Source: an uncultured Vicinamibacterales bacterium
GTDB taxonomy: Bacteria; Acidobacteriota; Vicinamibacteria; Vicinamibacterales; JAKQTR01
NCBI GenBank assembly: GCA_964481395.1
Contig: CAYZYG010000002.1
Location: 6,060 to 70,059, forward strand
Length of the DNA stretch: 64,000 bases
Reading direction: 5' to 3'
Positions 9,847 through 26,034 of this stretch are shown here, piece after piece (the first letter of the stretch is position 1; every line of letters starts with the position of its first letter). The position numbers and the translations under genes are program-made. Under the pieces are notes generated by a model, which saw only the letters and a program-made list of their open reading frames with translations, had not been told where the DNA came from and ran no database searches.

Positions 9847-11025
9847 CTATGCCCGCCGAATCGCGCGCCGCGCGGTCGCGAACAGTTCATCCGGCGTGAA
9901 GGGCTTGGCCATGTAGTCGCTCGCGCCGCGCTGGATGGCTTCGACCGCGGTGTCGATCGACGCGTAGCCGGTGACCATCACGACGGGCAGCTTCGGCCGG
10001 TGCTTGTGGATCGTCGGCAGCAGCTCGAGGCCGTTGGCGTCCGGCATCTTCATGTCGAGCAGCACGAGGTCGTACATCTCGTTGAGGATGCGTGTGAGTG
10101 CCTCGCGCCCCGAGAAGGCTTCCTCGACCTGGAATCCGCGGCGGCTCAGCGTCCGGCGAATGCTGTTGGCGACGACCGGCTCGTCGTCCACGACCAGGAC
10201 CTTGCGACCGGTCGCCTTCTCCGCGTTCCAGCGCCCGGGGACGGGCATGTCGCCGCGTCCGAGCGCGTCCGCGTAGGCCGGCGACGTCACGGCGGCCACC
10301 TCGGACCAGCTGAACGGCATATCGACGTCGATCTGGTCCTGCAGGTGCTGCATCGTCGCGGCCATGATCGCCTTCCGCCGTTCGGCGGCCAGCAGGGGGC
10401 ACTCGAGCTGCTGGCACACCCCCTTCGTCTTGTAGCGCTTGCAGTGGCGCTGGCCGAGGGCGCAGAAATCGATGACCGTGACATCGGAGCGCGTGAGCTG
10501 TTTGACGAACTGGGGAGACGTGGCTGCGGTGACCTCGGCGGCGTCGAACGGCATGTCGACGTCGATCACCTCGCCCTTCGGCGTCGACTTCACCTTGGGC
10601 TCGCGCTTCGGCGGGGCCGGGGTGGCCGTCCGCGAGCCAGGCTTCATCACGAGCGCGACGTGCGCCAGGGCGGCATCGAGTTCGTCCGGCGTGAACGGCT
10701 TCGGCAGATACCCCGCCGCGCCGGCCCGGGTGGCTTCGATGGCCGACGCGATCGACGCGTATCCGGTCATGATCATGAGCGGCGTCTGTGGCCAGCGGTC
10801 GCGGACGACGCGCAGCAGGTCGAGGCCGGAAGACTGAGGCATCATCAGATCCGCGAGGATCAGATCGAAGGCCGGACCCCTCTCGAGGTACTCGATGGCG
10901 GACGCGACGGAAATCGCCTTCTCCACGTCGTGGCCGCGCCGGGCGAGGATCTTCTCCACGCTCGCGCACACGGACCGTTCATCATCCACCACCAGAATCC
11001 GCTTGGTTGCCGTTGCCGTGCTCAT
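9847..11025 (-). CDS. dual-receiver response regulator with a novel Cys-containing central domain
   Basis: Two CheY-like REC domains (KRILVVDDE...DLMMP...PKPF and RKVLVVDDE...DMKMP...AKPF) flank about 145 aa with no output domain I recognise. The ORF opens at GTG 11034. I prefer ATG 11025, which lies 8 nt after GAGG. Confidence 0.85.
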   Translation of the reverse strand: MSTATATKRILVVDDERSVCASVEKILARRGHDVEKAISVASAIEYLERGPAFDLILADLMMPQSSGLDLLRVVRDRWPQTPLMIMTGYASIASAIEATRAGAAGYLPKPFTPDELDAALAHVALVMKPGSRTATPAPPKREPKVKSTPKGEVIDVDMPFDAAEVTAATSPQFVKQLTRSDVTVIDFCALGQRHCKRYKTKGVCQQLECPLLAAERRKAIMAATMQHLQDQIDVDMPFSWSEVAAVTSPAYADALGRGDMPVPGRWNAEKATGRKVLVVDDEPVVANSIRRTLSRRGFQVEEAFSGREALTRILNEMYDLVLLDMKMPDANGLELLPTIHKHRPKLPVVMVTGYASIDTAVEAIQRGASDYMAKPFTPDELFATARRAIRRA

Positions 11026-11060
11026 GGCCATCACCTCGTTGGGGTCGTGCTGCCAGTGAC

Positions 11061-11471: not shown

Positions 11472-12885
11472 TCACTCCTCGTGCCCGAGGCCGCCCCTGA
11501 TCCCGTGCTTGCGCATGAGCATCTGGAAGTTCTGCCGCTGGATGCCGACGTCGGCCGCGGCGTGGGTGACGTTCCAGCCGCTCCGCTCCAGAGCCTCCAC
11601 GACGAATTCGCGCTCCAGGTCGGCCACGGCCCGCTCGCGGAGCTGCCGCTTGAGCGCCAGGAACTCCTGGTTGGTCCTGGGGATGTCGAGATCGGCCGGG
11701 AGGGACTGGCGAGTGAGGACCCGGGGCAGGTGTCTCGGTTCGACAATGTCGCCGTCGCAGGCGATGACGGCGCGCTCGACGGACGCCTCGAGCTGTCGGA
11801 CGTTGCCGGGCCAGTCGTACTGCTCGAGGAGCCGCAGCGCATCTTCCGAGAAGCGATCCACCTGTTTGCCGCTGCGTTCCCGCGCGCGGCCGAGGAGGTG
11901 GCAGGCCAGCAGTGGAATGTCCTCGCGCCGGTCGCGCAGGGGAGGCAGGTAGATGGGGAACACGTACAGCCGGTAGTACAGGTCCTCGCGGAACGTGCCT
12001 TCGCGGACCATCTTCTCGAGATCCCGGTTCGTGGCGAAGACGAGGCGCACGTCCACCTTGCGGGGCTGCGTGCCGCCGACGGGCAGGAACTCGCGCTCCT
12101 GGATGAACCGCAGCAGCCGGGCCTGCACGTCCACGTCGACGTTGCAGATCTCGTCGAGGAACACGGTGCCGCGGTCGGCCGCCTCGAAGATGCCGCGCTT
12201 GTCGTGCACGGCTCCCGTGAACGATCCCCTGACGTGTCCGAACAGCTCGCTCTCGAGCAGGTTGACGGCCAGCGCGCCGCAGTCCACGGCGAAGAAGCGT
12301 TCATGGCGGCGGGGACTCAATGCGTGCACGGCCCGTGCGACGAGTTCCTTGCCGGTCCCCGTTTCGCCGACGATGAGGACGGTGCTCGAAGTGGGGGCGA
12401 CCTTCCGGATGAGCCGGTACACCTCCAGCATCTTGGGGCTGCCGCCCACGAGGCCCGCGAAGATGGCCGGATCCTGGCCAGACGCCGGCGTGATGCCGCG
12501 CGACCGCAAAATCTGCTGACGGCGCTCCCAGGCCTTGCCCGCCACGGCGGCCATTTCGGCCGGGGTGAACGGCTTCGGCAGGTACTCGAACGCGCCGACC
12601 TTCATGGTTTCGACGACCGAGGCGATGGTGGCGAACCCGGTGATGACGACGGGCACGATGTCGGGAAAGCTGCTGCGCAGCACGCCGAGCAGTTCCATGC
12701 CGCCCAGTTCGGCCATCTTGAGGTCCGTGAACACCACGTCGTACGTCCCCTCGGCGAGGTGCCTGAGGGCGTCGGCCCCGCTGGTCACGGTGGTGACGGC
12801 GTAGCCTTCGCGCGACAGGATCTTCTCGCAACTCCGGCAGATGGCCGGCTCGTCATCGACGACCAGCACGCGGGGTCCGTTGAGG

Positions 12886-12896
<11 letters not shown>
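11472..12896 (-). CDS. sigma-54-dependent response regulator (NtrC family)
   Basis: ORF 11472..13157 trimmed to ATG 12896 (MTSNLNGPRVLVVDDE). REC domain, AAA+ motifs GETGTGKE, ESELFGH and GSFTGA, and a C-terminal Fis-type HTH. The ATG lies inside the last codons of the kinase gene (GTCGATGACGAGTAA). Confidence 0.95.
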
Positions 12897-14996
<2,100 letters not shown>

Positions 14997-15003
<7 letters not shown>

Positions 15004-15626
15004 GCCCTGAGCCCGTCGTCCCTCGGCCAGGCTCGGGACGATCCCGAGTGTGTCGAAGGGGCGACGGTCGCGGCTTCGTCGGGCAGGCGGAACGCGCCCA
15101 CCCGTACGGTGTCGAGTGCCGCCAGCACCGCGTCTCGCGCGGCGGGCACGGCCTCGGCCACCGCTGTTGTCAGCGCTTCGCCAATCGACTCCATGTCGTC
15201 GACCTCCACCGCAACCACATGGATCCGATCCGGGAGCGGCACGCCCGACTGCCGGCCGAGCCGCATCACCGTGGGCAGACCCGCCGCGTGCGGGGATGGT
15301 CCCGAGTCTCCGCGCAACGCCTCGAAGGGCATCGAGAGGACGGTGCCAGGGGGATGCGAACCCGTCCGCACGGCATCGACGACGACGGCGGCATCGAAAC
15401 CGGTCAGCTCGTCGAGAAGGTAGAAACCCGAGAGCGGGGTCTTACGCACGACGACTGACTGGGACCGGGGACCGGGGACCAGGGACCAGGTCAGTCTCGC
15501 TTCCACCGCGTCCGCGACGGCCCATCCGACGCCATCGTCGCGCAGCAGGTCGTTCCCAAGGCACAGCACGACGACTGCGCCTTCGGCACAACTGGTCCCC
15601 GATCCCTGGTCCCCGGTCCCTGTCAT
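14997..15626 (-). CDS. [NiFe]-hydrogenase maturation endopeptidase (HybD/HycI/FrhD family)
   Basis: ORF trimmed to ATG 15626, which forms an ATGA overlap with the large-subunit stop. VVVLCLGNDLLRDDGVGWAV and VVVDAV...PGTV motifs. The N-terminus and an internal loop are encoded by heptad repeats. Confidence 0.85.
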
Positions 15627-17092
15627 CCGCCGCCCCTCGACACGGTCTTCAGTACCGCCCCGCGGCGGTCCCTGACGACCGCCCTCAGCGGCATTTCGCC
15701 GGGCAGCGAGTGCGTGGCGCAGCCGAAGCACGGGTCGTACGCGCGAAAGGCCATTTCCACCTGGTTGAGCAGACCGTCGTCGACCCGGCCGCCGTGGATC
15801 ACGCCCTTCGCGGCCTTTTCGATCGACATCTGGATGGGCGCCGCGTTGTGCACGGTGGCGACGACGAGGTTCACCATCGTGAGGATCCCGTTGGGGTCCG
15901 TGGCGTAGTGGTGGATGAGCGTCCCGCGAGGCGCTTCGACGATGCCGATGCCCTCCGTGGGAGCCTGGTCCGGGAGCCTGCGGACAACCGGATCGCCGAT
16001 TTCGGGATCGTTTGCCAGCGCCTGAACCGTTTCCGTCGCCTGGAGCGCTTCGATCAGGCGTGCCCAGTGGGTGGCCAGCGTGTTGTGCATCGGCTTGCCG
16101 CCGAGTATCTGCACCATCTGCTCGTAGTGCTCCTGCGCGCGGGGCGTGGCCATGCCGTCCGCGACGTTCAGGCGGGCGAGCGGAGCGACGCGAAACACGC
16201 CGCTCTCCGATCCGTCGACGAAGCCTTTCCAGCCGGGCCGCTTCAGGAACGGGAACTTGATGTACGACCAGGGCTCCACGTGCTCACCGATGTACTTCAA
16301 GTAGTCGGGCGGGTCGAATTCGGCCACACGCACGCCGGACGGATCGACGACCCGCAGGCGCCCCCGGTAGAAGCTCACGCGGCCGTTCGCGTCCACCGTG
16401 CCCATGTAGTGCGTCCGATGCGCGTAGTGGTCCGCCAGGATCGTGTCGACGTAGGCCTGGTTCTTCAGCACGATGTCGGCGAAGGCCTGGAGCGAGAAGG
16501 CCGCGAAGTCCACCAGTCCTGGCGCGGCCGCCTTCAGCCGCTCGACCGTTTCGGCCTTGAGGGGCTTGCTGATTCCGCCGGGCAGGCCGAACACCGGGTG
16601 AATGGTCTTTCCGGCCATCTCGGCCATGAACCCGCGGGCGACCTTGCGCGCCTCGATGACCTTGCCGCCGATCTCGAGCCCCACTTTGCCGATCACGCCC
16701 ACGACGTTGCGTTCACCAGCCGGCGCCGACGGGCCGACGACAAAGTCGGGGCCGCCGAGGAAGTAGAAGTGCAGCGTGTGGTCCTCGAACATGAACAGGT
16801 TGTAGAAGAGTTCGCGGACCTTGTGCGCGGCCGGCGGCGGGTCGACGTGGTACAGCGCGTCGAGGGCCCGGGCCGAGGCCATGTGGTGTGCGGACGGGCA
16901 GACGCCGCAGATGCGCTGCGTGATGCGCGGCATCTCTTCGGCCGGCCGGCCGAGGCAGAACCGCTCGAATCCGCGCAGCTCGGGGATCTGCATGTACGCG
17001 TTGGCGACTTCGCCGCGGTCGTCGAGGAAGATCTCGATCTTGCCGTGGCCTTCGAGGCGCGTGATGGGGTCGATCGTGATGCGCTGAGTCAT
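15623..17092 (-). CDS. mvhA: [NiFe]-hydrogenase large subunit, group 3 (Mvh-like by context)
   Basis: MTQRITIDPITRLEGHGKI. RICGVCPSAHH and C-terminal DPCFGCATH ligand motifs, followed by a 28-aa cleavable tail. ATGA overlaps at both ends. Confidence 0.93.
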   Translation of the reverse strand: MTQRITIDPITRLEGHGKIEIFLDDRGEVANAYMQIPELRGFERFCLGRPAEEMPRITQRICGVCPSAHHMASARALDALYHVDPPPAAHKVRELFYNLFMFEDHTLHFYFLGGPDFVVGPSAPAGERNVVGVIGKVGLEIGGKVIEARKVARGFMAEMAGKTIHPVFGLPGGISKPLKAETVERLKAAAPGLVDFAAFSLQAFADIVLKNQAYVDTILADHYAHRTHYMGTVDANGRVSFYRGRLRVVDPSGVRVAEFDPPDYLKYIGEHVEPWSYIKFPFLKRPGWKGFVDGSESGVFRVAPLARLNVADGMATPRAQEHYEQMVQILGGKPMHNTLATHWARLIEALQATETVQALANDPEIGDPVVRRLPDQAPTEGIGIVEAPRGTLIHHYATDPNGILTMVNLVVATVHNAAPIQMSIEKAAKGVIHGGRVDDGLLNQVEMAFRAYDPCFGCATHSLPGEMPLRAVVRDRRGAVLKTVSRGGG

Positions 17093-18066
17093 ACGCCAGC
17101 TCCAGCTCTCCGCCGGTGGAGCAGAGAGACCGGCAGCGAGAAGCGGTAGAAGGTGCCGACCGGGTCCGGGATCTGATCGAGCAGCCGGTCGATCTCGGCT
17201 TCGGTTTTCGGTGCCAGGATGGAGGCGAAGGCCGACAGGAACTTCGCGCCCTGGTCGAACACGTCGTCGAGCGGGCCCGAGCACCCGCGGCAGGGCATGT
17301 TGCCCTCGATGCACGGCATGCCGCATCCTTGACGTGTCGCCGGCCCCATGCAGATGAACCCCTGGGCGAGGAAACAGGTCTCCGGATCGGCGATGTGCGT
17401 GGCCGGCCGCTTGATCTCGGTCAGCTCGATCCTGTCCGGCTTGGTGTCCTTGCGCGGGCAGTCGTCGCAGCAGGCCTTGTTCGGCGAGAGGACGGCGCCC
17501 TTCGGCGGCAGGGTCCCGGTGAGGATGGCCTCGATCGCCTTCCAGATGAGATCCGGCGGCGGCGCGCACCCGGGCAGGTAGTAGTCGACGTCGATCACCT
17601 GGTTGAGGGCCTTGACGTCGTCCCAGAACTCGGGGAGGTGGAGGTCGCAGCCGTTGGTCGTCGACTGGGCTCCGGGTTCGGTGCCGGGAGCGTTGTCGAC
17701 GGACGGCACGTCCCGGTACACCGTGTCGAAGACCTGCCGGCGGTCGTTCAGGTTGGCGAGGCCCGGAATCCCGCCGAGGTGGGCGCAGGCCCCGAAGGCG
17801 ACGACGATCTGCGACTTCCGGCGGAGCAGGTGCACCCACTCTTCCTGCTCGGACATGCGGACGCCGCCGTTGATGAACGCCACGGCGATGCTGCCGTCGT
17901 CCATGGCCTCGATGTCCTTCCGCTTGAAGTCCATCGCGACCGGCCAGAGGACGATGTCGACGGCGTCGACGACGGTGAGGATGCGCTCCTCGAGATCGAC
18001 GACGGCCTCCTCGCAGCCACCGCAGGAGGCGCACCAGTAGAACGCGACCTTCGGTTTCTGTGCCAC
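17089..18066 (-). CDS. mvhG: [NiFe]-hydrogenase small subunit, three-cluster Mvh/Frh-like type
   Basis: FYWCASCGGCEE proximal-cluster motif. Cys-rich C-terminus (ACCDDCPRKD, CFLAQGFICMGPATRQGCGMPCIEGNMPCRGC). At 325 aa it is much longer than one-cluster HoxY-type subunits. Confidence 0.9.
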   Translation of the reverse strand: MAQKPKVAFYWCASCGGCEEAVVDLEERILTVVDAVDIVLWPVAMDFKRKDIEAMDDGSIAVAFINGGVRMSEQEEWVHLLRRKSQIVVAFGACAHLGGIPGLANLNDRRQVFDTVYRDVPSVDNAPGTEPGAQSTTNGCDLHLPEFWDDVKALNQVIDVDYYLPGCAPPPDLIWKAIEAILTGTLPPKGAVLSPNKACCDDCPRKDTKPDRIELTEIKRPATHIADPETCFLAQGFICMGPATRQGCGMPCIEGNMPCRGCSGPLDDVFDQGAKFLSAFASILAPKTEAEIDRLLDQIPDPVGTFYRFSLPVSLLHRRRAGAGV

Positions 18067-18067
18067 G

Positions 18068-18487
18068 TCAGCTCCTCGCCCCGTTGAAGGGCCCGAGCGC
18101 GCGCAGTTGCCCGGTCATCTCGTTGATCACGTGCTGCACGCGGTCGCCCTCGCTCGCCGAGATCCACTCGAGCCGCACGCGCTCGTCCTCGACGCCGAGC
18201 TGGGCGAGGACGCGCTTGAGCAGGCGGAAGCGGCGCAGCGCCTTGTAGTTGCCTTCCTGGTAGTGGCAGTCCCCTGGGTGGCATCCGCCGATGAGGACGC
18301 CGTCGGCGCCTTCGTGGAGGGCCTTCATCACGAACTGCGGGTCGATGCGCCCGGAGCACATGACGCGGATGACGGGCGCGTTGGGTTCGTACGCCATCCG
18401 CGCGGTGCCGGCCAGGTCCGAGGCCGTGTAGGTGCACCAGTTGCAGAAGAACGCGACGATACGGGGCTCGAATGCGGCGGTGGCCAT
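18068..18487 (-). CDS. mvhD: MvhD/FlpD-family hydrogenase iron-sulfur subunit
   Basis: IVAFFCNWCTYTASDLAG...VMCSGRIDPQFV...GCHPGDCHY is the MvhD delta-subunit signature. Confidence 0.9.
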   Translation of the reverse strand: MATAAFEPRIVAFFCNWCTYTASDLAGTARMAYEPNAPVIRVMCSGRIDPQFVMKALHEGADGVLIGGCHPGDCHYQEGNYKALRRFRLLKRVLAQLGVEDERVRLEWISASEGDRVQHVINEMTGQLRALGPFNGARS

Positions 18488-18538
18488 GGGCCTGGCTCCT
18501 GTCCTTCGGCGCGGGACCCCGGTCCCGCGTCCGGGCGG

Positions 18539-20290
18539 CTACGACACCAGGACGCCCTCGATCTCGGCCATGATCTGGGCGTCGGTGAAGTGATGCTGCT
18601 GCGCGGCATGCGACGGGCAGGCCGCCACGCACGTGCCGCAGCCCTTGCAAAGCGCCTCGTTGAGCTGCGACACCTTCTTGTCCTTGTTGAACTCGATCGC
18701 GCTGAAGGGGCAGAGCGGCACGCAGACCTGGCAGCCGGAGCACAACGTCTCGTCGATGTGGGCCGTGTACGCTTCGAGTTCGACCTCGCCCTTGTCGATG
18801 AGCGCCATCGCCTCCGCGGCGGCGGCGCCCGCCTGAGCCACCGTATCCGGGATGTCCTTGGGGCCCTGCGCGCAGCCGGCGATGAAGACGCCATCCGTGA
18901 AGGTCGAGACCGGCGCGAGCTTGGGGTGCCGCTCGAGGAACCAGCCGTCGCTCGAGCACGACATGTTGAAGAGGCGGCGCACCTCGGCGGCGTCCTCACG
19001 CGCCTCGAGGCCGGTCGAGAGGATGACCATGTCGACGGGGATCCGCCGGACGAGGCCTGCCAGCGTGTCCTCGGCGCGGATGACGAGCTTGCCCTTCTCC
19101 ATGAGCGTGATGGCCCAGTCGGACACCTCGGCGACCCGACCGCGGATGAACTCGACGCCTTCGGCGAGCAGCCGGTTGTAGAACTCCTCGTAGCCCTTTC
19201 CGGGGCTGCGCATGTCGATGTAGAAGTTGTAGACCTTCGCGTGGCTGCGCTCGTGGACGAGGTGCGCCAGCTTCAGCGAGTACATGCAGCAGACCCGCGA
19301 GCAGTACTCGTGCGTGTTCTTGTCGCGCGAGCCGACGCAGTGGATGATGCCCACCGACTCGGGGACGCGGCCGTCCTTCAGCAGGACCTGGCCGTTGTTC
19401 GGCCCCGAGGCGTTCACCATGTGCTCGACCTGCAGGGCCGTGAAGACGTTGGGGTACAGGCCGTAGCCGTACTGCGGCACCTTCTTCGCGTCGACGGGCT
19501 GGAAGCCGGTGGCGACGATGATGGAGCCGACCTTGACCTCCTCGTGGCGGTCCTGCTGGCCGTGGTCGATGGCCTTGGCCTCGCAGGCCGTGGCGCACAC
19601 GCGGCAGCCGTCGGTCTTGAAGTGGATGCACGAGTCGGCGTCGATCACCGGCTGGTGGGGCACCGCCTGCATCGTCGGGATGTAGATCGGCGTGAGCGGC
19701 CCGAGCGGCAGTTCGCTCCGGATCTGCTCCGCTTCGCGCTCGATGGTGATGCAGCCGGTGGGGCAGACGTACGCGCAGGCCCCGCACGCGATGCACTTCT
19801 CGGAGGGCTCGTCGAAGGCCGTCCCGACGTAGCGCGTCGTGCCGCGGTTGAAGAAGCCGAGCACGTGGGCGCCGACGACGTCGGAGCAGACGCGGACGCA
19901 CAGGCCGCAGAGGATGCACGTGTCGTCGCCGCGGCCGAAGCGCGGCTCCTCGATGCCGTACTCCGCGGCCAGATCGGTGAGAACCTTCACGTGGCCGCAT
20001 CGGGCGAGCATCCACTCGAGGATGAGCTTGCGCGTCCGTCGCACGCGATCGGTCTGGGTGAAGACCTGAATGCCGTCGGTGACCGGGTAGTTGCAGGCGG
20101 TCACCATGCGGACCCGGCCGCGCATGTGAACCTCGACCGTGCAGATGCGGCACACGCCGTAGGGCTCGAGCAGCGGGTGATGGCACAGCGTGGGAATCCT
20201 GACGCCGGCCTTCTGCGCCACCTGCAGCAGCGGCGTGCGGTCCTCGGCTTCGGTCCTGATGCCGTCGATCGTGACTGTCACGAGCTTCAT
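18539..20290 (-). CDS. fusion protein: HoxU/NuoG-like 2Fe-2S + 2x[4Fe-4S] N-terminus joined to the C-terminal half of HdrA
   Basis: The first roughly 190 aa contain LCHHPLLEPYGVCRICTVEV...ACNYPV (2Fe-2S), CILCGLCVRVC and CIACGACAYVCPTGC. The rest aligns by eye to HdrA from the second motif of its inserted ferredoxin domain (PIYIPTMQAVPHQPVIDADSCIHFKTDGCRVCATAC) through VGSRD...CSRVCC to the C-terminal ferredoxin domain (CSGCQVCVPLCP, CKGCGTCVAACP). Confidence 0.88.
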   Translation of the reverse strand: MKLVTVTIDGIRTEAEDRTPLLQVAQKAGVRIPTLCHHPLLEPYGVCRICTVEVHMRGRVRMVTACNYPVTDGIQVFTQTDRVRRTRKLILEWMLARCGHVKVLTDLAAEYGIEEPRFGRGDDTCILCGLCVRVCSDVVGAHVLGFFNRGTTRYVGTAFDEPSEKCIACGACAYVCPTGCITIEREAEQIRSELPLGPLTPIYIPTMQAVPHQPVIDADSCIHFKTDGCRVCATACEAKAIDHGQQDRHEEVKVGSIIVATGFQPVDAKKVPQYGYGLYPNVFTALQVEHMVNASGPNNGQVLLKDGRVPESVGIIHCVGSRDKNTHEYCSRVCCMYSLKLAHLVHERSHAKVYNFYIDMRSPGKGYEEFYNRLLAEGVEFIRGRVAEVSDWAITLMEKGKLVIRAEDTLAGLVRRIPVDMVILSTGLEAREDAAEVRRLFNMSCSSDGWFLERHPKLAPVSTFTDGVFIAGCAQGPKDIPDTVAQAGAAAAEAMALIDKGEVELEAYTAHIDETLCSGCQVCVPLCPFSAIEFNKDKKVSQLNEALCKGCGTCVAACPSHAAQQHHFTDAQIMAEIEGVLVS

Positions 20291-20321
20291 CTCGGCCTCC
20301 AGCGCCTCGAGTGACCGGCTC

Positions 20322-22238
20322 TCACACCCGCAGGATGGCGTCGCGCTTGCACGCCTCGATGCAGGCGCCGCACTTGATGCACAGGTCCTGCTTGAGCAGG
20401 TGGGGGTACTTCACCTGGCCGGTGATGGCCCCCGTCGCGCACACGTTCACGCACGCATGGCAGCCGTCGCACTTCTCGGCCACGATTTCATAGTGGATAA
20501 GCGCCTGGCAGACCCCCGCCGGGCAGCGGTGCTCGCGGATGTGCGCGAGGTACTCGTCCCGGAAGTACCGCAGCGTCGAGAGCACCGGGTTCGGGGCCGA
20601 CGTCCCGAGCGCGCACAGGCAGGCGTCCTGCATGACGCCGCCCATCTCCTCCAGCAGGTCGAGGTCGCCCTCGTCGCCCTTGCCGTCGCAGATGCGCTGG
20701 AGCACGTCGAGCGAGCAGCGCAGGCCCTCGCGGCAGGGCGTGCACTTGCCGCACGACTCCTCGGTGAGGAAGGCGATGAAATAGCGGGCGACGTCCACCA
20801 TGCAGGTATGGTCGTCCATGACGATCATCCCGCCCGAGCCCATCATCGACCCCGCGGCCGTCAGGCTGTCGAAGTCCACCGGCATGTCGAGCAGCGACTC
20901 CGGGAGACAGCCGCCGGAGGGGCCTCCGGTCTGCACCGCCTTGAACGTCCGCCCGTGCGGAATGCCGCCGCCGATGTCGAAGATGATCTCGCGCAGCGTC
21001 ATGCCCATGGGCACTTCGATGAGCCCGGTGTTGTTCACCTTGCCGACGAGCGAGAACACCTTGGTGCCGGAGCTGCCGTTCCAGGGGTTCTCGCCCACCT
21101 CGCCGGTGCCCATCGAGGCGAACCACTCGGCTCCCCGGTTGATGATGAGGGGCACGTTCGCCCACGTCTCGACGTTGTTCAGGTTCGTCGGCTGGTTCTT
21201 GTAGCCGTACTCGACCGTGTGGATGTACTTGGCCCTCGGCTCGCCGACACGGCCCTCCAGGGACGCCATGAGCGCGGTCGACTCGCCGCAGACGAACGCG
21301 CCGGCACCCTGAACGACCTCGATGTCGAAGCTGAAATGCGTGCCGAGAATGTCCTGGCCGAGGAGCCCGCGGTCGCGCGCCTGTGTGAGGGCGATCCCCA
21401 GACGCTCGCGCGCGATCGGGTACTCGTGCCGGATGTACACGAAGCCCTGGTGCGCGCCGATCGCCCGGGCGCCGATGATCATGCCTTCGACGACGGCGTG
21501 CGGATCGCTCTCGATGATGCTGCGATCCATGAACGCGCCGGGATCACCTTCGTCGGCGTTGCAGACGACGACAGGGTCGACGCCCCGGTGCAGGGCCGCC
21601 TGACGGCACGTGGCCCACTTGATGCCGGCCGGGAAGCCCCCGCCGCCGCGCCCGCGCAGCCCCGAGAGCTTGATCTCGCGGATGATTTCGTCGGCGGTCA
21701 TCTGCGTCATCGCCCTGACCAGGGCGGTGTAGCCGTCCCGTGCGATGTAGTCCTCGATCCGTTCCGGGTCGATGATGCCGCGGTTGCGCAGCGCGACCAG
21801 CCGCTGCTTCGCGAAGAACGGGATCTCGGCCAGGGCCGGCACGGGCGCCGGCGCGCCGGGGGGCGTGTACATCAGCTTCGGCACCGGGCGATGGCTGACG
21901 AGGTGCTCCTGCACCAGCGTCGGCACGTCCTTCTCTTTCAGGCCGCAGTAGAAGACGCCGTCCGGCTGGACGATGGCCACGGGGCCCTCGGCGCAGAAAC
22001 CCTGGCATCCGGTGCGAACCACCTGCACCTGGTCGTGAAGGCCGTGCTTCGCGATCTCGCGCTCGAGCGCGGCCTGCACCGGCAGCGACGAGCAGGACAC
22101 GCATCCCGTGCCGGCGCAGACGAGCACGTGGGCGCGGCAGGGCGAGCCAGCCGCGGGCGGTCCACCCGTCCGCAGGGCGAGCGTCGGCGCGAGCTCGGCC
22201 CGCAGCCGCTTCAGTTCGTCGATGGTGAGTCTGGGCAT
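20322..22238 (-). CDS. NuoF/HoxF/HydB-like NAD(P)H-binding FMN iron-sulfur flavoprotein
   Basis: ORF trimmed to ATG 22238 (MPRLTIDELK). GLRGRGGGGFPAGIKW (FMN), NADEGDPGAFMDR (NADH) and ESCGKCTPCREG (4Fe-4S). N-terminal thioredoxin-like 2Fe-2S domain. C-terminal CDGCHACVNVC and CIKCGACIEAC. Confidence 0.93.
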   Translation of the reverse strand: MPRLTIDELKRLRAELAPTLALRTGGPPAAGSPCRAHVLVCAGTGCVSCSSLPVQAALEREIAKHGLHDQVQVVRTGCQGFCAEGPVAIVQPDGVFYCGLKEKDVPTLVQEHLVSHRPVPKLMYTPPGAPAPVPALAEIPFFAKQRLVALRNRGIIDPERIEDYIARDGYTALVRAMTQMTADEIIREIKLSGLRGRGGGGFPAGIKWATCRQAALHRGVDPVVVCNADEGDPGAFMDRSIIESDPHAVVEGMIIGARAIGAHQGFVYIRHEYPIARERLGIALTQARDRGLLGQDILGTHFSFDIEVVQGAGAFVCGESTALMASLEGRVGEPRAKYIHTVEYGYKNQPTNLNNVETWANVPLIINRGAEWFASMGTGEVGENPWNGSSGTKVFSLVGKVNNTGLIEVPMGMTLREIIFDIGGGIPHGRTFKAVQTGGPSGGCLPESLLDMPVDFDSLTAAGSMMGSGGMIVMDDHTCMVDVARYFIAFLTEESCGKCTPCREGLRCSLDVLQRICDGKGDEGDLDLLEEMGGVMQDACLCALGTSAPNPVLSTLRYFRDEYLAHIREHRCPAGVCQALIHYEIVAEKCDGCHACVNVCATGAITGQVKYPHLLKQDLCIKCGACIEACKRDAILRV

Positions 22239-22261
22239 CGGTCGTCTCCCTCGCGCGCCGA

Positions 22262-22741
22262 TCAGTGCGCCGTGGGCTTGTAGTCCTTGACGTACTTCTT
22301 CAGCATCCGCGGGATGCCCGCCTGCTTGATCTTGCCGTGCACGTCGGTGCCCACCGTGATCACCGGGGCGAGCCCGCAGCAGCCGAGGCAGTTCACCGTG
22401 TCGAGGCCGAACTCGAGATCGGGCGTCGTTTCGCCCTTCTGGATGCCCAGTTCGCGCGTGAGGGCATCGAGCAGGCGCGGGGCGCCCTGCACGTGACACG
22501 CGGTGCCCATGCAGACGTGGATGCGGTGCCGGCCCATCGGCTTCAGGCTGAAACCGCGGTAGAAGGTGGCGATGCTGAGCACCGACGTGACAGGGGTCTG
22601 CACCCGGGCCGCGATCGCCTCCAGGACCTCGCGGGGCAGGTAGCGGAACTCCTCCTGGCAGTCGAGGAGGATGGCGATGAGGGCCTCGCGGCGCCCCTCG
22701 TGCCGATCCACGATGCCGTCGACCGTGCTGAGGTCAATCAT
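22262..22741 (-). CDS. NuoE/HoxE-like thioredoxin-fold [2Fe-2S] subunit
   Basis: ORF trimmed to ATG 22741, which forms an ATGA overlap with the upstream stop. IAILLDCQEEFRYLP, VCMGTACHVQG and CLGCCGLAP. Confidence 0.9.
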   Translation of the reverse strand: MIDLSTVDGIVDRHEGRREALIAILLDCQEEFRYLPREVLEAIAARVQTPVTSVLSIATFYRGFSLKPMGRHRIHVCMGTACHVQGAPRLLDALTRELGIQKGETTPDLEFGLDTVNCLGCCGLAPVITVGTDVHGKIKQAGIPRMLKKYVKDYKPTAH

Positions 22742-23613
22742 GTCCGCGCTCCCTGGGGCGCGCCGGCCGGCGCCGGCGTGCGCCCGATCACCCTGGTGCC
22801 CATCCGGATCACGCGCGTGGCCGGTATGCGGCGGGCCGGGCACGCCTCCCAGCACGCACCGCAGCCCGTGCACTTATCCGTGTCCACGTAGCTGGCCTTG
22901 CGCCTGACCTTGACCGTGAAGTTGCCGATGAACCCGCTCACCTCTTCGACCTCGCTGTAGGCCATCAGGTGGATGTTCGGGTGTTTGCCGACCTGCGTCA
23001 TCTTCGGCGTGAGGATGCAGGCCGCGCAGTCCAGCGTCGGGAACGTCTTGTCGAAGTGCGCCATGTGGCCGCCGATGCTCGGCTCGCGCTCGACCAGGTA
23101 CACCTGCTTGCCGGCCGCGGCCATGGTCAGGGCCGCGGAGATGCCGGCGATGCCGCCGCCCACGATGAGGACGTTGGGGTTGATCGGCGTCTTCGACCGC
23201 TCGAGGGCGTGGTGCAGCGCGACGCGGCGGACCGCCGCGGTCAGCAGGAGGCGCGCCTTCTGCGTGGCCCGGTCCGCGTCCGCCGTCACCCACGAGACCT
23301 GTTCGCGGATGTTGACCATCTGGTAGAGGTACGGGTTGAGGCCCTGGTCCTCGAGGACGGCCCTGAACGTCGGCTCGTGCATCAGGGGAGAGCAGGAGGC
23401 CACGACGAGGTGGGTGATGCCCGCGCGCGCGATGTCGTCCTTGATCAGCTGCTGCCCCGGGTCGGAGCACATGAACTTGTACGTCTTCGCGAGCGCGACG
23501 TTCGGCAGGGTGGCGGCGTACTTCTGCAGGGCGTCGACGTCCACGCGGCTCGCGATGTTCAGGCCGCAGTGGCAGATGTAGACCCCGATGCAGCAGGTGT
23601 CGTCGGCTGGCAT
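22738..23613 (-). CDS. hdrA: heterodisulfide reductase subunit A, N-terminal half only
   Basis: IGVYICHCGLNIASRVDV, VVASCSPLMHEPTFR, VLIVGGGIAGISAAL (FAD) and DKTFPTLDCAACILTPKM. It ends just after the first ferredoxin motif (DKCTGCGACWEACP) plus a 32-aa tail. Confidence 0.9.
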   Translation of the reverse strand: MPADDTCCIGVYICHCGLNIASRVDVDALQKYAATLPNVALAKTYKFMCSDPGQQLIKDDIARAGITHLVVASCSPLMHEPTFRAVLEDQGLNPYLYQMVNIREQVSWVTADADRATQKARLLLTAAVRRVALHHALERSKTPINPNVLIVGGGIAGISAALTMAAAGKQVYLVEREPSIGGHMAHFDKTFPTLDCAACILTPKMTQVGKHPNIHLMAYSEVEEVSGFIGNFTVKVRRKASYVDTDKCTGCGACWEACPARRIPATRVIRMGTRVIGRTPAPAGAPQGART

Positions 23614-23632
23614 GGCGCGCTCCCCTCCGGAC

Positions 23633-24499
23633 CTAGGCCATCACCGGCAGCGGGGCTGCCGTGACGAAGTTGCGGTGCAGCCCCAGCGACGCGGGCGACA
23701 GGCCGAACGCCACGCCCATGAGCTGGGTGAAGTAGGCCACCGACAGGTGCGCGTCCTCCCTGAAGGCGCGCGTCATCTTGTCCTGGTAGGCCTCGAGATT
23801 GAACTGGCACAGCGGGCACAGCGTGGCGACGACGTTGGCGCCTCTGGTCTTGGCTTCCTTCAGCAGAAGGAAGGTGAGCCGCACGCCGATGTCCTCCATC
23901 GTGCCCATGAGCGAGCCGCCGCAGCAGCGGGCCTTGAGGGGATAGTCGACGACCCGGGCGCCAAGCAGGGGCATCAGGCGTTCGAGCGATGTGGGGCGCA
24001 GCGGGTCGTCGAAGGTGCCGTACGGGCGGACGACTTGGCAGCCGTAGTACGGCGCCACCCGGAACTCCGAGAGCGGCCGGACGACCTTTGCACGGATGAG
24101 CGCCGGGTCGACGTCGTTGACGAGGATGTCCAGCGGGTGGCGCACGGACAGGTGGCCCGTGTAGGCGAGGCCGACCGTCGCGAGGCCCTTCCGCACCTTC
24201 TCGGCGACGTGCGGGTACTCGGCCATGGCATGCTGAGCCTTGACGAGCACCAGGTAGCAGGCGGCGCACGGGGCCACCACCTCGCGGCCCAGCCGTTCGG
24301 CCATCGCCAGGTTGCGTGCGGCGAGCGCCACCGCCTTCTGCTGGCGGACGGACATGTAGGACGTGGCCCCGCAGCAGTTCCAGTCCTCGAGTTCCTCGAG
24401 CCCGAGGCCGAGGTGCGCGAAGATCGCCCGCAGCGACTCGTCGTACGGCTTGCCGAGCCCGCTCAGCGAGCAGCCGGGGTAGTAGGTGTAGGTGGTCAT
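23633..24499 (-). CDS. hdrB: heterodisulfide reductase subunit B (two CCG domains)
   Basis: YYPGCSL, DWNCCGATS, PCAACY, YYGCQ, KARCCGGSL and CPLCQFN. Confidence 0.9.
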   Translation of the reverse strand: MTTYTYYPGCSLSGLGKPYDESLRAIFAHLGLGLEELEDWNCCGATSYMSVRQQKAVALAARNLAMAERLGREVVAPCAACYLVLVKAQHAMAEYPHVAEKVRKGLATVGLAYTGHLSVRHPLDILVNDVDPALIRAKVVRPLSEFRVAPYYGCQVVRPYGTFDDPLRPTSLERLMPLLGARVVDYPLKARCCGGSLMGTMEDIGVRLTFLLLKEAKTRGANVVATLCPLCQFNLEAYQDKMTRAFREDAHLSVAYFTQLMGVAFGLSPASLGLHRNFVTAAPLPVMA

Positions 24500-24500
24500 C

Positions 24501-25082
24501 TCACGATTCCTCCACCGAGTCGAGCACGGCCTTGAGCTGCTCGGGGTGCTGGATCCGTTCCTGGCCGAGGACCATGCGGCCCGTCCTGAGCAGCTTGAGA
24601 CCCTGGGGGGCCATCCTCAGAAGACCGAGCGGGTTCGTCTTCATGGCCAGCTGGATGACGAGGCGCGACTCGGAGTTGCGTCCGTGCCTGGCGACCATGT
24701 CGTAGAACGAGCGGGCCAGCACCGGAATGGGGAACCGCTTCGGGTACATGCCCTTCTCGATCGCGCGCCGCTTGATGGCGTACATCAGGTCGGTGACCTT
24801 GATGCCGCGCGGGCAGCGGACCTGGCACTCGTAGCACGAGGCGCAGAGCCACGGCGTGGCCGACTGGAGCACGTCGCGCTCGAGGCCGGAACGCGTGAGC
24901 GCGATGAGCCGCCGCGGCGTCAGGTCCATGTACACCGACATCGGGCAGGCGCCGCTGCAGGTGCCGCACTGGATGCAGTCCCGGAGGGCTTCGCCGCCCA
25001 GCTTCGCCATGACCTCGGCCGGGAACGCCGGGTTCACGTCCTCGGCGTACCGACAGTGGGTCGTTGCCTGTTCCACGACCAC
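24501..25082 (-). CDS. hdrC: heterodisulfide reductase subunit C (2x[4Fe-4S])
   Basis: CIQCGTCSGACP and CASCYECQVRCP. One nt separates it from hdrB. GTG start, which is uncertain. Confidence 0.85.
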   Translation of the reverse strand: MVVEQATTHCRYAEDVNPAFPAEVMAKLGGEALRDCIQCGTCSGACPMSVYMDLTPRRLIALTRSGLERDVLQSATPWLCASCYECQVRCPRGIKVTDLMYAIKRRAIEKGMYPKRFPIPVLARSFYDMVARHGRNSESRLVIQLAMKTNPLGLLRMAPQGLKLLRTGRMVLGQERIQHPEQLKAVLDSVEES

Positions 25083-25509: not shown

Positions 25510-26034
25510 ATGAGGATGAACACCCGCGGTCGGTACGGTATCCAGCTGCTGACACAGCTGGCCTGTCACATCACCGACAAGCGGCCGATCGGTCTCCGCC
25601 AGATCGCGGACCGCACGGGCCTCCCGTGGCGGTACCTCGAGCAGATCGCCCGCCCGCTGCGGCGGGCGTCGATCATCAAGGGGCGCATCGGGCGCGTCGG
25701 CGGCTACGAACTCGCGCGCGAGCCCGAGGCCATCACGCTGCGCGAAGTCATCGAGGCGACCGACGGACCGTTGTGCCTGATGAACTGCGTGGACACGCCT
25801 GCCGTGTGCGACCACAGCGCGACCTGCCCGTCGCGGACGATGTGGGTGTCGCTCACGAACGACATCCGCGACGTGCTCGGCCGCTACTCGCTGGCGGACC
25901 TCGCGACACGTCCGTGCGCGGAATGTCAGGAGCTGGCCGAGAAGGCTCACGACGCGCGCGAACGCCGGAAGCACGCTCCGGCCCGGCCGAAACGCCCGGG
26001 CAAGGCCTGGCGCTTTCTGCGCACGATGGAGTAG
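25510..26034 (+). CDS. Rrf2-family (IscR/NsrR-like) transcriptional regulator
   Basis: MRMNTRGRYGIQLLTQLA...LRQIADRTGLPWRYLEQIARPL winged helix. Cys cluster CLMNCVDTPAVCDHSATC. Divergent from the hdr operon. Confidence 0.9.
   Translation: MRMNTRGRYGIQLLTQLACHITDKRPIGLRQIADRTGLPWRYLEQIARPLRRASIIKGRIGRVGGYELAREPEAITLREVIEATDGPLCLMNCVDTPAVCDHSATCPSRTMWVSLTNDIRDVLGRYSLADLATRPCAECQELAEKAHDARERRKHAPARPKRPGKAWRFLRTME

Follow-up and report, generated by a model that had tools for sequence, protein, structure and literature searches.

Electron bifurcation is the main route by which strict anaerobes obtain low-potential electrons without the expenditure of ATP. To our knowledge four families of bifurcating enzymes are known and no more, and we know of no enzyme shown to join two bifurcation families serially before the 2026 structure of class II benzoyl-CoA reductase (BCRII). 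The present analysis concerns an operon of ten minus-strand genes at positions 14997-25082 of a 64,000-nucleotide stretch of DNA (the window) from an uncultured Vicinamibacterales bacterium (contig CAYZYG010000002.1, positions 6,060 to 70,059), in which the heterodisulfide reductase gene hdrA is split and components of the Bfu family of bifurcating enzymes occupy the break. In solved complexes containing HdrA, electrons enter by way of MvhD and the C-terminal ferredoxin domain, the high-potential exit is provided by HdrC and HdrB, and the inserted ferredoxin domain constitutes the low-potential exit of the bifurcating flavin adenine dinucleotide (FAD). Sequence comparison and analogy with these systems suggest, with a probability of about 0.5, that the operon encodes one soluble multi-subunit oxidoreductase, namely an Mvh-Hdr complex with a two-piece HdrA and a complete Bfu module in the break, through which electrons would flow forward from the hydrogenase.

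The Hdr and Mvh parts of the operon have their counterpart in the MvhAGD-HdrABC complex of methanogens (group 3c; PDB 5ODC, 8RVU). BCRII of Geobacter metallireducens, of composition Bam[(BC)2DEFGHI]2, is the only characterised enzyme found with a Bfu-type and an HdrA-type module in series: its HydBC/Bfu-type BamGHI is linked to the bifurcating FAD of the HdrA-type BamE, it also possesses an MvhD-like BamF and an HdrBC-like BamD, and the authors of the 2026 preprint considered this serial coupling of HydBC-type and HdrA-type units to be exceptional. Within the Bfu family, NiFe-HydABCSL of Acetomicrobium mobile (PDB 7T2R) likewise ties a [NiFe] hydrogenase to NAD+ and ferredoxin through BfuBC. 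The BfuBC core of this family requires a third-substrate module that feeds BfuA, bifurcating BfuB is separated from the non-bifurcating NuoF and HoxF by extra N- and C-terminal cluster domains, and in a type 2 BfuA electrons from the partner enter at A4, then pass to A2, A1 and BfuBC (Schut et al. 2022). A further parallel is offered by the type III HdrA of Bathyarchaeota and ANME-1, in which a GltD/NfnB-like domain lies by the inserted ferredoxin domain, an arrangement read as a ferredoxin site repurposed for NADH, with mvhADG sometimes nearby (PMC12054007).

The genes of the operon run in the order hdrC, hdrB, hdrA N-half, bfuC (nuoE-like), bfuB (nuoF-like), a fusion of a bfuA-type part with the hdrA C-half, mvhD, mvhG, mvhA and a protease gene. 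Like MvhAGD-HdrABC, the locus contains all six subunit types in the usual order, and shares with that complex the Glu/Lys pair of the FAD site, both CCG motifs, an HdrC with two [4Fe-4S] clusters, MvhD, a three-cluster small subunit and the [NiFe] cysteine motifs. Unlike it, the locus has an HdrA broken within the inserted ferredoxin domain, with three Bfu genes or gene parts in the break, and the NCBIfam equivalog scores of its Hdr/Mvh-type proteins were all below cutoff. A prior description of the window made from its letters alone (the sequence-only reading) had reported this gene order, and all ten genes were recovered at the coordinates that it gave, with the Pfam domains of each open reading frame (ORF) in agreement with its labels. 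The G+C content of the window is ~68%, and codon-position GC and domain content served to tell the real genes from spurious ORFs, of which there were many.

The N-half of hdrA (22738..23613, minus strand; 291 residues) comprises the N-terminal cluster domain, the beginning of the FAD/TrxR domain and the first cysteine motif of the inserted ferredoxin domain; Pfam recognised one Fer4 domain and an FAD Rossmann fold, in accord with the FAD motif already attributed to this half. The C-half, residues 197-583 of the fusion protein (18539..19702, minus strand), supplies the second cysteine motif, the remainder of the FAD/TrxR domain and the C-terminal 2x[4Fe-4S] domain. Compared with solved structures, residues 9-261 of the N-half aligned with residues 14-267 of HdrA (8rvu_a; expectation value, E, 1e-93) and residues 196-581 of the fusion with residues 276-653 of the same chain (E 7e-114), the break falling at residues 267-276 and the pieces tiling the solved HdrA contiguously. 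The NCBIfam HdrA2 model was similarly tiled by three proteins, namely the N-half (model positions 2-281), the fusion (240-640) and MvhD (646-774). Because the alignments tile both 8rvu_a and the HdrA2 model, the N-half and the C-terminal part of the fusion represent contiguous halves of one HdrA; the sequence-only reading had named such contiguity beforehand as one test of its split hdrA. All HdrA domains are thereby present, but over two ORFs rather than in the single polypeptide of the group 3c complex.

The two CxxCxxCxxxC motifs of the inserted ferredoxin domain flank the break, and 2.4 kb separate the ORFs of the two halves. The N-half carries only motif 1 (C248, C251, C254 and C258), at its end, and the C-half only motif 2 (C221, C229, C232 and C236 of the fusion), at its start; a cysteine check of the homologue alignment confirmed that both motifs are conserved. 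In ferredoxin folds of the 2x[4Fe-4S] type, one motif provides three of the cysteines that ligate each cluster and the other motif the fourth. Given this three-plus-one rule and the location of the motifs on separate polypeptides, we infer that both [4Fe-4S] clusters of the inserted domain would be ligated jointly by two chains, thereby holding the halves together. Residues E289 and K340 of the fusion aligned to E356 and K409 of 5odc_A and were invariant in 60 homologues; it is by E356 and K409 (5ODC numbering) that the bifurcating FAD site of structural HdrA is defined (PMC12054007). Both halves are intact, conserved ORFs with a G+C content at third codon positions (GC3) of 0.96-0.97.

Of the genes that occupy the break, bfuC (22262..22741, minus strand; 159 residues, NuoE/HydC-like) encodes a [2Fe-2S] protein (Pfam 2Fe-2S_thioredx, 4e-47) with matches to NCBIfam HoxE and NuoE models below cutoff. 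The bfuB product (20322..22238, minus strand; 638 residues, NuoF/HydB-like) combines a Trx-like [2Fe-2S] domain, a flavin mononucleotide (FMN)/NAD(H) site, a [4Fe-4S] cluster and a C-terminal 2x[4Fe-4S] ferredoxin-binding domain (Pfam N-terminal Trx-like 2Fe-2S, Complex1_51K, NADH_4Fe-4S and two C-terminal Fer4). Its best solved match was the bifurcating NiFe-HydB of A. mobile (7t2r_B; E 7e-231), with which residues 35-636 aligned end to end (residues 5-595 of HydB) across the N-terminal [2Fe-2S] domain, the FMN loop, the ESCGKCxPCREG motif, the C-terminal 2x[4Fe-4S] domain and all cysteine motifs; it also resembled T. maritima HydB and WorB. The FMN and NADH motifs noted in the sequence-only reading therefore stand, but its assignment of the module to the NuoE/NuoF/HoxU (Hox) type gives way, on the strength of the 7t2r_B match, to a bifurcating core of the Bfu/HydABC type. 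Since BfuB has the extra [2Fe-2S] and 2x[4Fe-4S] domains, it is predicted to have a ferredoxin site and a bifurcation centre of its own, so that the two-flavin complex envisaged in that reading retains its flavins but would contain two bifurcation sites.

The 583-residue fusion protein starts with a plant-type [2Fe-2S] domain. Its residues 1-196 (19703..20290, minus strand) form the BfuA-type part (Pfam Fer2_4 and Fer4), with the [2Fe-2S] cluster A1 and the [4Fe-4S] clusters A2 and A4 but without A3 and A5. Residues 4-187 found their best match in the 247-residue WorA of A. mobile WorABCSL (Wor-Bfu; 9mqx_A of PDB 9MQX, 1e-40), which has the same A1/A2/A4 set, and were also similar to the N-termini of HydA and NuoG. 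Twelve cysteines (36, 47, 50, 66, 125-135 and 166-176), invariant in 60 homologues, suffice for one [2Fe-2S] cluster and two of the [4Fe-4S] type; the expected position of the His-ligated A3 holds one cysteine only, and no A3 His/Cys motif was present. Judged by these motifs, this part is a type 2 BfuA (A1, A2 and A4 only), and the sequence features that characterise the Bfu family are complete: a BfuB with all cluster domains, a BfuC with its [2Fe-2S] cluster and a BfuA of type 2. Some 18 residues separate the end of the motif bearing A4 from the segment that is homologous to HdrA residues 276-295, and the linker between the BfuA part and the HdrA C-half is conserved, the 60-sequence alignment having 601 columns for 583 residues. 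In HydA the catalytic H-cluster domain comes after A4, and the HdrA C-half of the fusion takes the place of that domain relative to A4.

These features set the locus apart from each of the related systems described. NiFe-HydABCSL has a 692-residue HydA with A3 and A5, a one-cluster small subunit of 179 residues and no Hdr or MvhD component, whereas in the locus HdrA is fused with a BfuA that has been cut down to A1/A2/A4, and the small subunit belongs to the MvhG type; the best-scoring stretch of the fusion against 7t2r_A was confined to residues 1-101, which falls short of the type 3 NiFe-Bfu arrangement of that enzyme. In WorABCSL and the type 2 Bfu enzymes the partner is a simple catalytic subunit docked by an adaptor helix, as opposed to the covalently fused bifurcating HdrA found here. 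Type III HdrA has the same insertion site in HdrA and the same proposed logic, but consists of one NAD(P)H domain in an unbroken chain rather than a three-subunit bifurcating module in a split gene. BCRII differs in having no hydrogenase, a tungsten-containing BamBC as its output, a BamE that is a fused HdrA dimer and not split, and a BamI that is a separate subunit at the C-terminal ferredoxin domain, the BfuA of the locus being fused at the inserted one. No aldehyde-oxidoreductase-type domain was detected by Pfam in the ten locus genes, that is, no counterpart of the tungsten BamB/BamC of BCRII.

The remaining subunits proved to be of the Mvh and Hdr types. The hdrC-like gene (24501..25082, minus strand; 193 residues, Pfam Fer4_8/Fer4_17) supplies cysteines 36, 39, 42 and 46 together with 80, 83, 86 and 90 for two [4Fe-4S] clusters, with NCBIfam HdrC models below cutoff. 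The hdrB-like gene (23633..24499, minus strand; 288 residues) encodes two CCG domains (Pfam, 9e-25) and a predicted disulfide-reducing site; its product matched methanogen HdrB (8rvv_B) at 3e-40, and cysteines 10, 42, 43, 78 and 81 plus 154, 192, 193, 228 and 231 preserve both CX31-39CCX35-36CXXC motifs, upholding the CCG-domain HdrB described earlier and marking a difference from BCRII. Downstream of the fusion, mvhD (18068..18487, minus strand; 139 residues) encodes the [2Fe-2S] adaptor (Pfam FlpD, 8e-54), followed by an mvhG-type [NiFe] small subunit gene (17089..18066, minus strand; 325 residues, Pfam Oxidored_q6). Residues 6-315 of this small subunit aligned with MvhG (5odc_E, 1e-66), and against the one-cluster subunits of NiFe-Bfu (7t2r_E) and Hox only residues 4-188 of the 325 aligned, so that the three-cluster, Mvh-type small subunit of the sequence-only reading was recovered at near full length. 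The group 3 [NiFe] large subunit gene, mvhA (15623..17092, minus strand; 489 residues, Pfam NiFeSe_Hases), has RICGVC...H and DPCFGCATH motifs and a product about equally similar to A. mobile HydL (7t2r_D, 2e-112, its best solved match), MvhA (5odc_F, 3e-105) and HoxH (5xf9_D, 3e-100). The last gene (14997..15626, minus strand; 209 residues) encodes a hydrogenase maturation endopeptidase (Pfam HycI; TIGR00072 at 99.5 bits, above cutoff).

Successive genes of the operon are joined by ATGA start/stop overlaps at 22738-22741, 17089-17092 and 15623-15626, or separated by gaps of 1, 19, 23, 31, 51 and 1 nucleotides with a GGAG-type ribosome-binding site before each, and a terminator scan of the minus strand returned no terminator-like hairpin within 14997-25082. 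Equivalent arrangements were recorded elsewhere by scanning one genome per species, which yielded 80 loci, on which the ten window proteins were mapped by tblastn; 79 of these could be scored. The hdrA gene was split in 35, intact in 39 and undecidable in five. The complete order hdrC-hdrB-hdrAN-bfuC-bfuB-fusion-mvhD-mvhG-mvhA was observed in 16 split loci (counted from the tblastn map), and the hydrogenase lay directly downstream in ~20. Carriers were labelled Aminicenantes, Zixibacteria, Ignavibacteria, Bryobacterales, Armatimonadetes, Planctomycetaceae, Verrucomicrobiota, Calditrichaeota, Chloroflexia, Anaerolineae and 'archaeon'/Thermoplasmata. No adjacent hydrogenase was present in about a dozen of the split loci, from Desulfobacterales, Desulfococcaceae, Myxococcales, some Anaerolineae and Thermoplasmata; these kept the core hdrAN-bfuC-bfuB-fusion-mvhD beside other partners, which shows that this core is a reusable module.

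Because the split layout occurs on independent contigs of many phyla, it is neither an assembly chimera nor a recent disruption, and the synteny search suggested by the sequence-only reading accordingly found a layout that is not peculiar to one genome. The same reading had spoken of a polished operon, a description borne out by the recurrence of the split across phyla and by the number of full-length fusion proteins. More than 120 full-length relatives of the fusion (59-90% identity) were counted as clusters at 90% identity, their names, if any, being 'heterodisulfide reductase subunit A' or '4Fe-4S binding protein', and at least 12 distinct fusion-type representatives stood in the top 150 among representatives at 50% identity. 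The 90%-identity cluster to which the fusion itself belongs includes proteins from Vicinamibacterales (Acidobacteriota) metagenome-assembled genomes (MAGs). A neighbour-joining tree was built from the HdrA C-halves of the 79 loci and of the window, with a methanogen outgroup; the split form was interleaved with the intact form, and this crude method resolves neither one versus several origins nor the direction of change.

In the complex proposed, H2 would be oxidised at MvhA and the electrons carried by MvhG and MvhD to the FAD of HdrA, where they would be bifurcated. The high-potential electron would pass through HdrC to the CCG clusters of HdrB and thence to a disulfide, and the low-potential electron would travel from the split ferredoxin domain into BfuA (A4-A2-A1) and on to the FMN/Fe-S centre of BfuBC without release to free ferredoxin; BfuBC would then share electrons between NAD+ and ferredoxin. 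Wiring through the inserted ferredoxin domain is probable on grounds of sequence and analogy, BfuABC being proposed in place of free ferredoxin as acceptor of the low-potential electron because A4 lies so few residues from the inserted-domain half, the linker is conserved and the HdrA C-half follows A4 as the catalytic domain does in HydA. From published potentials (H2 -414 mV, heterodisulfide -140 mV, NAD(H) about -280 mV, ferredoxin about -500 mV), and with the heterodisulfide value used for the disulfide, the overall reaction of H2 with disulfide, NAD+ and ferredoxin would be exergonic. Such a cascade might allow H2 at low partial pressure to charge NADH and ferredoxin together at the expense of a disulfide; alternatively, by bifurcating the low-potential output of HdrA against NAD+, it might generate electrons below the potential of ferredoxin.

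A number of considerations weigh against this proposal. An AlphaFold2 model of the fusion from the 60-sequence alignment gave both domains confidently, but with a predicted template-modelling score (pTM) of 0.41 and a predicted local distance difference test (pLDDT) below 50 for linker residues 187-213 the placement of the domains relative to each other is unreliable, and a chimera of N-half and fusion modelled without an alignment was unusable (mean pLDDT 34.6); the wiring accordingly rests on sequence topology and analogy. In BCRII, the sole characterised enzyme with both Bfu and HdrA, the Bfu module is the electron input, and its electrons arrive at the FAD by way of the C-terminal ferredoxin domain and the MvhD-like subunit, not by the inserted domain. 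Bfu might also be the donor in the dozen or so split loci that have no adjacent hydrogenase. To feed electrons already at low potential partly to NAD+ looks energetically wasteful. Finally, the host is acidobacterial, a non-methanogen, in which the heterodisulfide CoM-S-S-CoB is an unlikely substrate of HdrBC.

A rival reading gives the complex the polarity of BCRII, with NADH and reduced ferredoxin confurcated in BfuBC and feeding the HdrA FAD, which would then bifurcate to HdrBC and a low-potential output; the hydrogenase would be an alternative donor, or H+/H2 the low-potential output, of what would be a fermentative H2-evolving or NADH-dependent disulfide reductase. BCRII itself works in this way, several split loci without an adjacent hydrogenase leave Bfu as the only obvious donor, and nine related loci contain a cassette of HydS-like [FeFe]-hydrogenase, kinase, DRTGG and PHP genes, blocks of which kind accompany fermentative HydABC hydrogenase operons. 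The carriers Ignavibacteria and Aminicenantes are described in genome papers as fermenters, and the authors of the type III HdrA study proposed NADH as mid-potential donor with H2 and heterodisulfide as acceptors (PMC12054007). Nonetheless, the fusion is made at the inserted ferredoxin domain, the low-potential arm in all solved HdrA complexes, instead of the C-terminal domain/MvhD entry that serves BamI; the canonical input position is held by MvhD and a full Mvh-type hydrogenase; and electrons from NADH and ferredoxin, at about -400 mV, are not below H2 at -414 mV, which would make H2 an unnatural low-potential product. This polarity is for these reasons considered rather unlikely. That the operon instead co-transcribes separate enzymes, an Mvh-Hdr complex with a two-piece HdrA and a merely tethered Bfu NADH:ferredoxin module with no obligatory coupling, draws on the fact that operon membership by itself does not prove a complex and that the core hdrAN-bfuCB-fusion-mvhD has different partners by lineage; it is hard to reconcile with a BfuA covalently joined to the HdrA C-half by a conserved linker, with bfu genes between the hdrA halves in all 35 split loci, and with the need of the BfuBC core for a module feeding BfuA (Schut et al. 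2022), a role that only HdrA can serve here, and is accordingly improbable. Sub-threshold matches to the NCBIfam HoxE and HoxU models, and a large subunit about as close to HoxH as to MvhA, could be taken to indicate a group 3d HoxEFU-HoxYH enzyme beside an unrelated Hdr, or else an hdrA pseudogene or assembly chimera. The group 3d (HoxEFUYH) assignment is ruled out by the extra cluster domains of BfuB, missing from HoxF and NuoF, by the MvhG-type three-cluster small subunit and by the presence of MvhD; the pseudogene and chimera are ruled out by intact, conserved halves with the GC3 values given above, by invariant key residues and by dozens of independent contigs, and this last explanation in any of its forms is exceedingly improbable.

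The proposed one-complex reading, with electrons flowing forward from H2, recasts the interpretation offered in the sequence-only reading as Mvh-Hdr combined with Bfu; that interpretation is partly supported, being right in outline. The Bfu kinds named by Schut et al. (2022) are FeFe-, NiFe-, Nfn-, Fdh-, F420-, Wor-, Codh-, Por-, Mbh-, Nuo-, Rub- and Bam-Bfu, and an Hdr/Mvh-Bfu is not among them in that paper. In the genome papers that treat carriers, the cluster goes under the label MvhADG/HdrABC, without an assigned function. Clusters of a group 3c hydrogenase with hdr genes are reported for Caldithrix abyssi, where hdr lies upstream of Cabys_1914-1916, and for Thermoanaerobaculum aquaticum. 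Neither a split hdrA with nuoEF/hydBC genes inside it nor a characterised enzyme of this architecture, of which the sequence-only reading had likewise known none, was found described by full-text searches of the literature, nor the former in the supplement to the Bfu family paper, although an earlier mention cannot be excluded. By its sequence, the system appears to consist of known modules in a widespread arrangement for which no description was found, and suggests that the serial idea of BCRII has been built around a [NiFe] hydrogenase and HdrBC in many uncultured phyla. It may tentatively be advanced that these loci represent a widespread class of hydrogenase complex of soil and sediment bacteria that has so far escaped recognition, in which two bifurcation centres of different mechanism, the HdrA FAD and the Bfu FMN/Fe-S centre, operate in series through a two-chain ferredoxin domain. 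If true, these loci would join class II benzoyl-CoA reductase as the second known system with serially coupled bifurcation modules, and as the first that includes a hydrogenase, and would supply a natural instance of a ferredoxin domain built from two chains. Metabolic reconstructions of bacterial group 3c hydrogenases, annotated in current carriers simply as 'MvhADG/HdrABC' or '4Fe-4S binding protein', would change in that NADH would become a product or substrate beside ferredoxin, and the question of which disulfide the HdrBC enzymes of non-methanogens reduce would be sharpened.

A number of variants were recorded among the related loci (numbered L001 onwards). A Sumerlaeia MAG (L033, 39-3371) encodes an unbroken HdrA of 1111 residues into which a GltD/NfnB-like NAD(P)H domain is inserted where the split loci have their break, within the inserted ferredoxin domain; mvhD, mvhG and mvhA come next. 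This HdrA is what corresponds in bacteria to the type III form of archaea. Since this GltD insertion and the Bfu insertion of the split loci share one site, in agreement with type III HdrA, the inserted ferredoxin domain is, as judged from sequence, a recurrent docking site for pyridine-nucleotide modules. In five split loci (L002 6912-9986; L020 6838-9960; L023 6788-9958; L025 6820-9990; L027 6531-9644) BfuB is extended to ~1024-1056 residues by a C-terminal GltD/NfnB-like FAD/NAD(P)H domain after the NuoF core, which suggests an extra NADP(H) site in some lineages. A Syntrophobacteraceae MAG (L052, 2820-5153) possesses one 778-residue HdrA that keeps the tail of the N-half (CPARIVPRRRRIV) and the BfuA-type 2x[4Fe-4S] insert in a locus with no bfuC or bfuB, and resembles a gene that was re-fused once the Bfu core had been lost.

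The core cassette pairs with different partner modules, as indicated by L022, L023, L027 and L028 (Desulfobacterales, Desulfococcaceae and Myxococcales), where it is followed by two distant HdrA-like genes (23-37% identity) and hdrC-hdrB instead of a hydrogenase. Contigs of two Thermoplasmata archaea (L040 and L058) contain the split/Bfu core, the former with a second mvhD-mvhG-mvhA set and an intact hdrA a few kb off, and the latter with a second mvhD-mvhG before the contig end. The HydS-type cassette is a block of 3.8 kb between hdrA-N and bfuC in L001, L002, L004, L005, L007, L008, L026, L050 and L081 (3481-8143 in L081) that the window does not have. Its products are a HydS-like homologue of sensory [FeFe]-hydrogenases (Fe_hyd_lg_C), two kinase-like HATPase proteins, an extra small Trx-like [2Fe-2S] protein, and proteins of the DRTGG and PHP types.

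With regard to control of the operon, a sigma-70 promoter scan gave no sites, and a search for a sigma-54 promoter upstream of hdrC, prompted by an adjacent NtrC-type regulator, gave no convincing match; sigma-54 matches with up to two mismatches numbered 43 across the window against 53.5 expected by chance. Directly downstream of the protease gene lies a gene for a Cache-HAMP sensor histidine kinase (12886..15003, minus strand; Pfam sCache_3_3, HAMP, HisKA and HATPase_c), a probable regulator of the operon. It is followed by the gene for the sigma54-dependent NtrC-type response regulator (11472-13157, minus strand) and, beyond that, by one for a protein with two receiver domains (9847-11034, minus strand). 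A kinase and sigma54 regulator pair was also observed 3' of mvhA in locus L081, and because the same pair trails mvhA there, it may control the operon. On the opposite strand, divergent from the hdrC promoter region, lies the gene for an Rrf2-family transcriptional regulator of the iron-sulfur type (25510-26034, plus strand).

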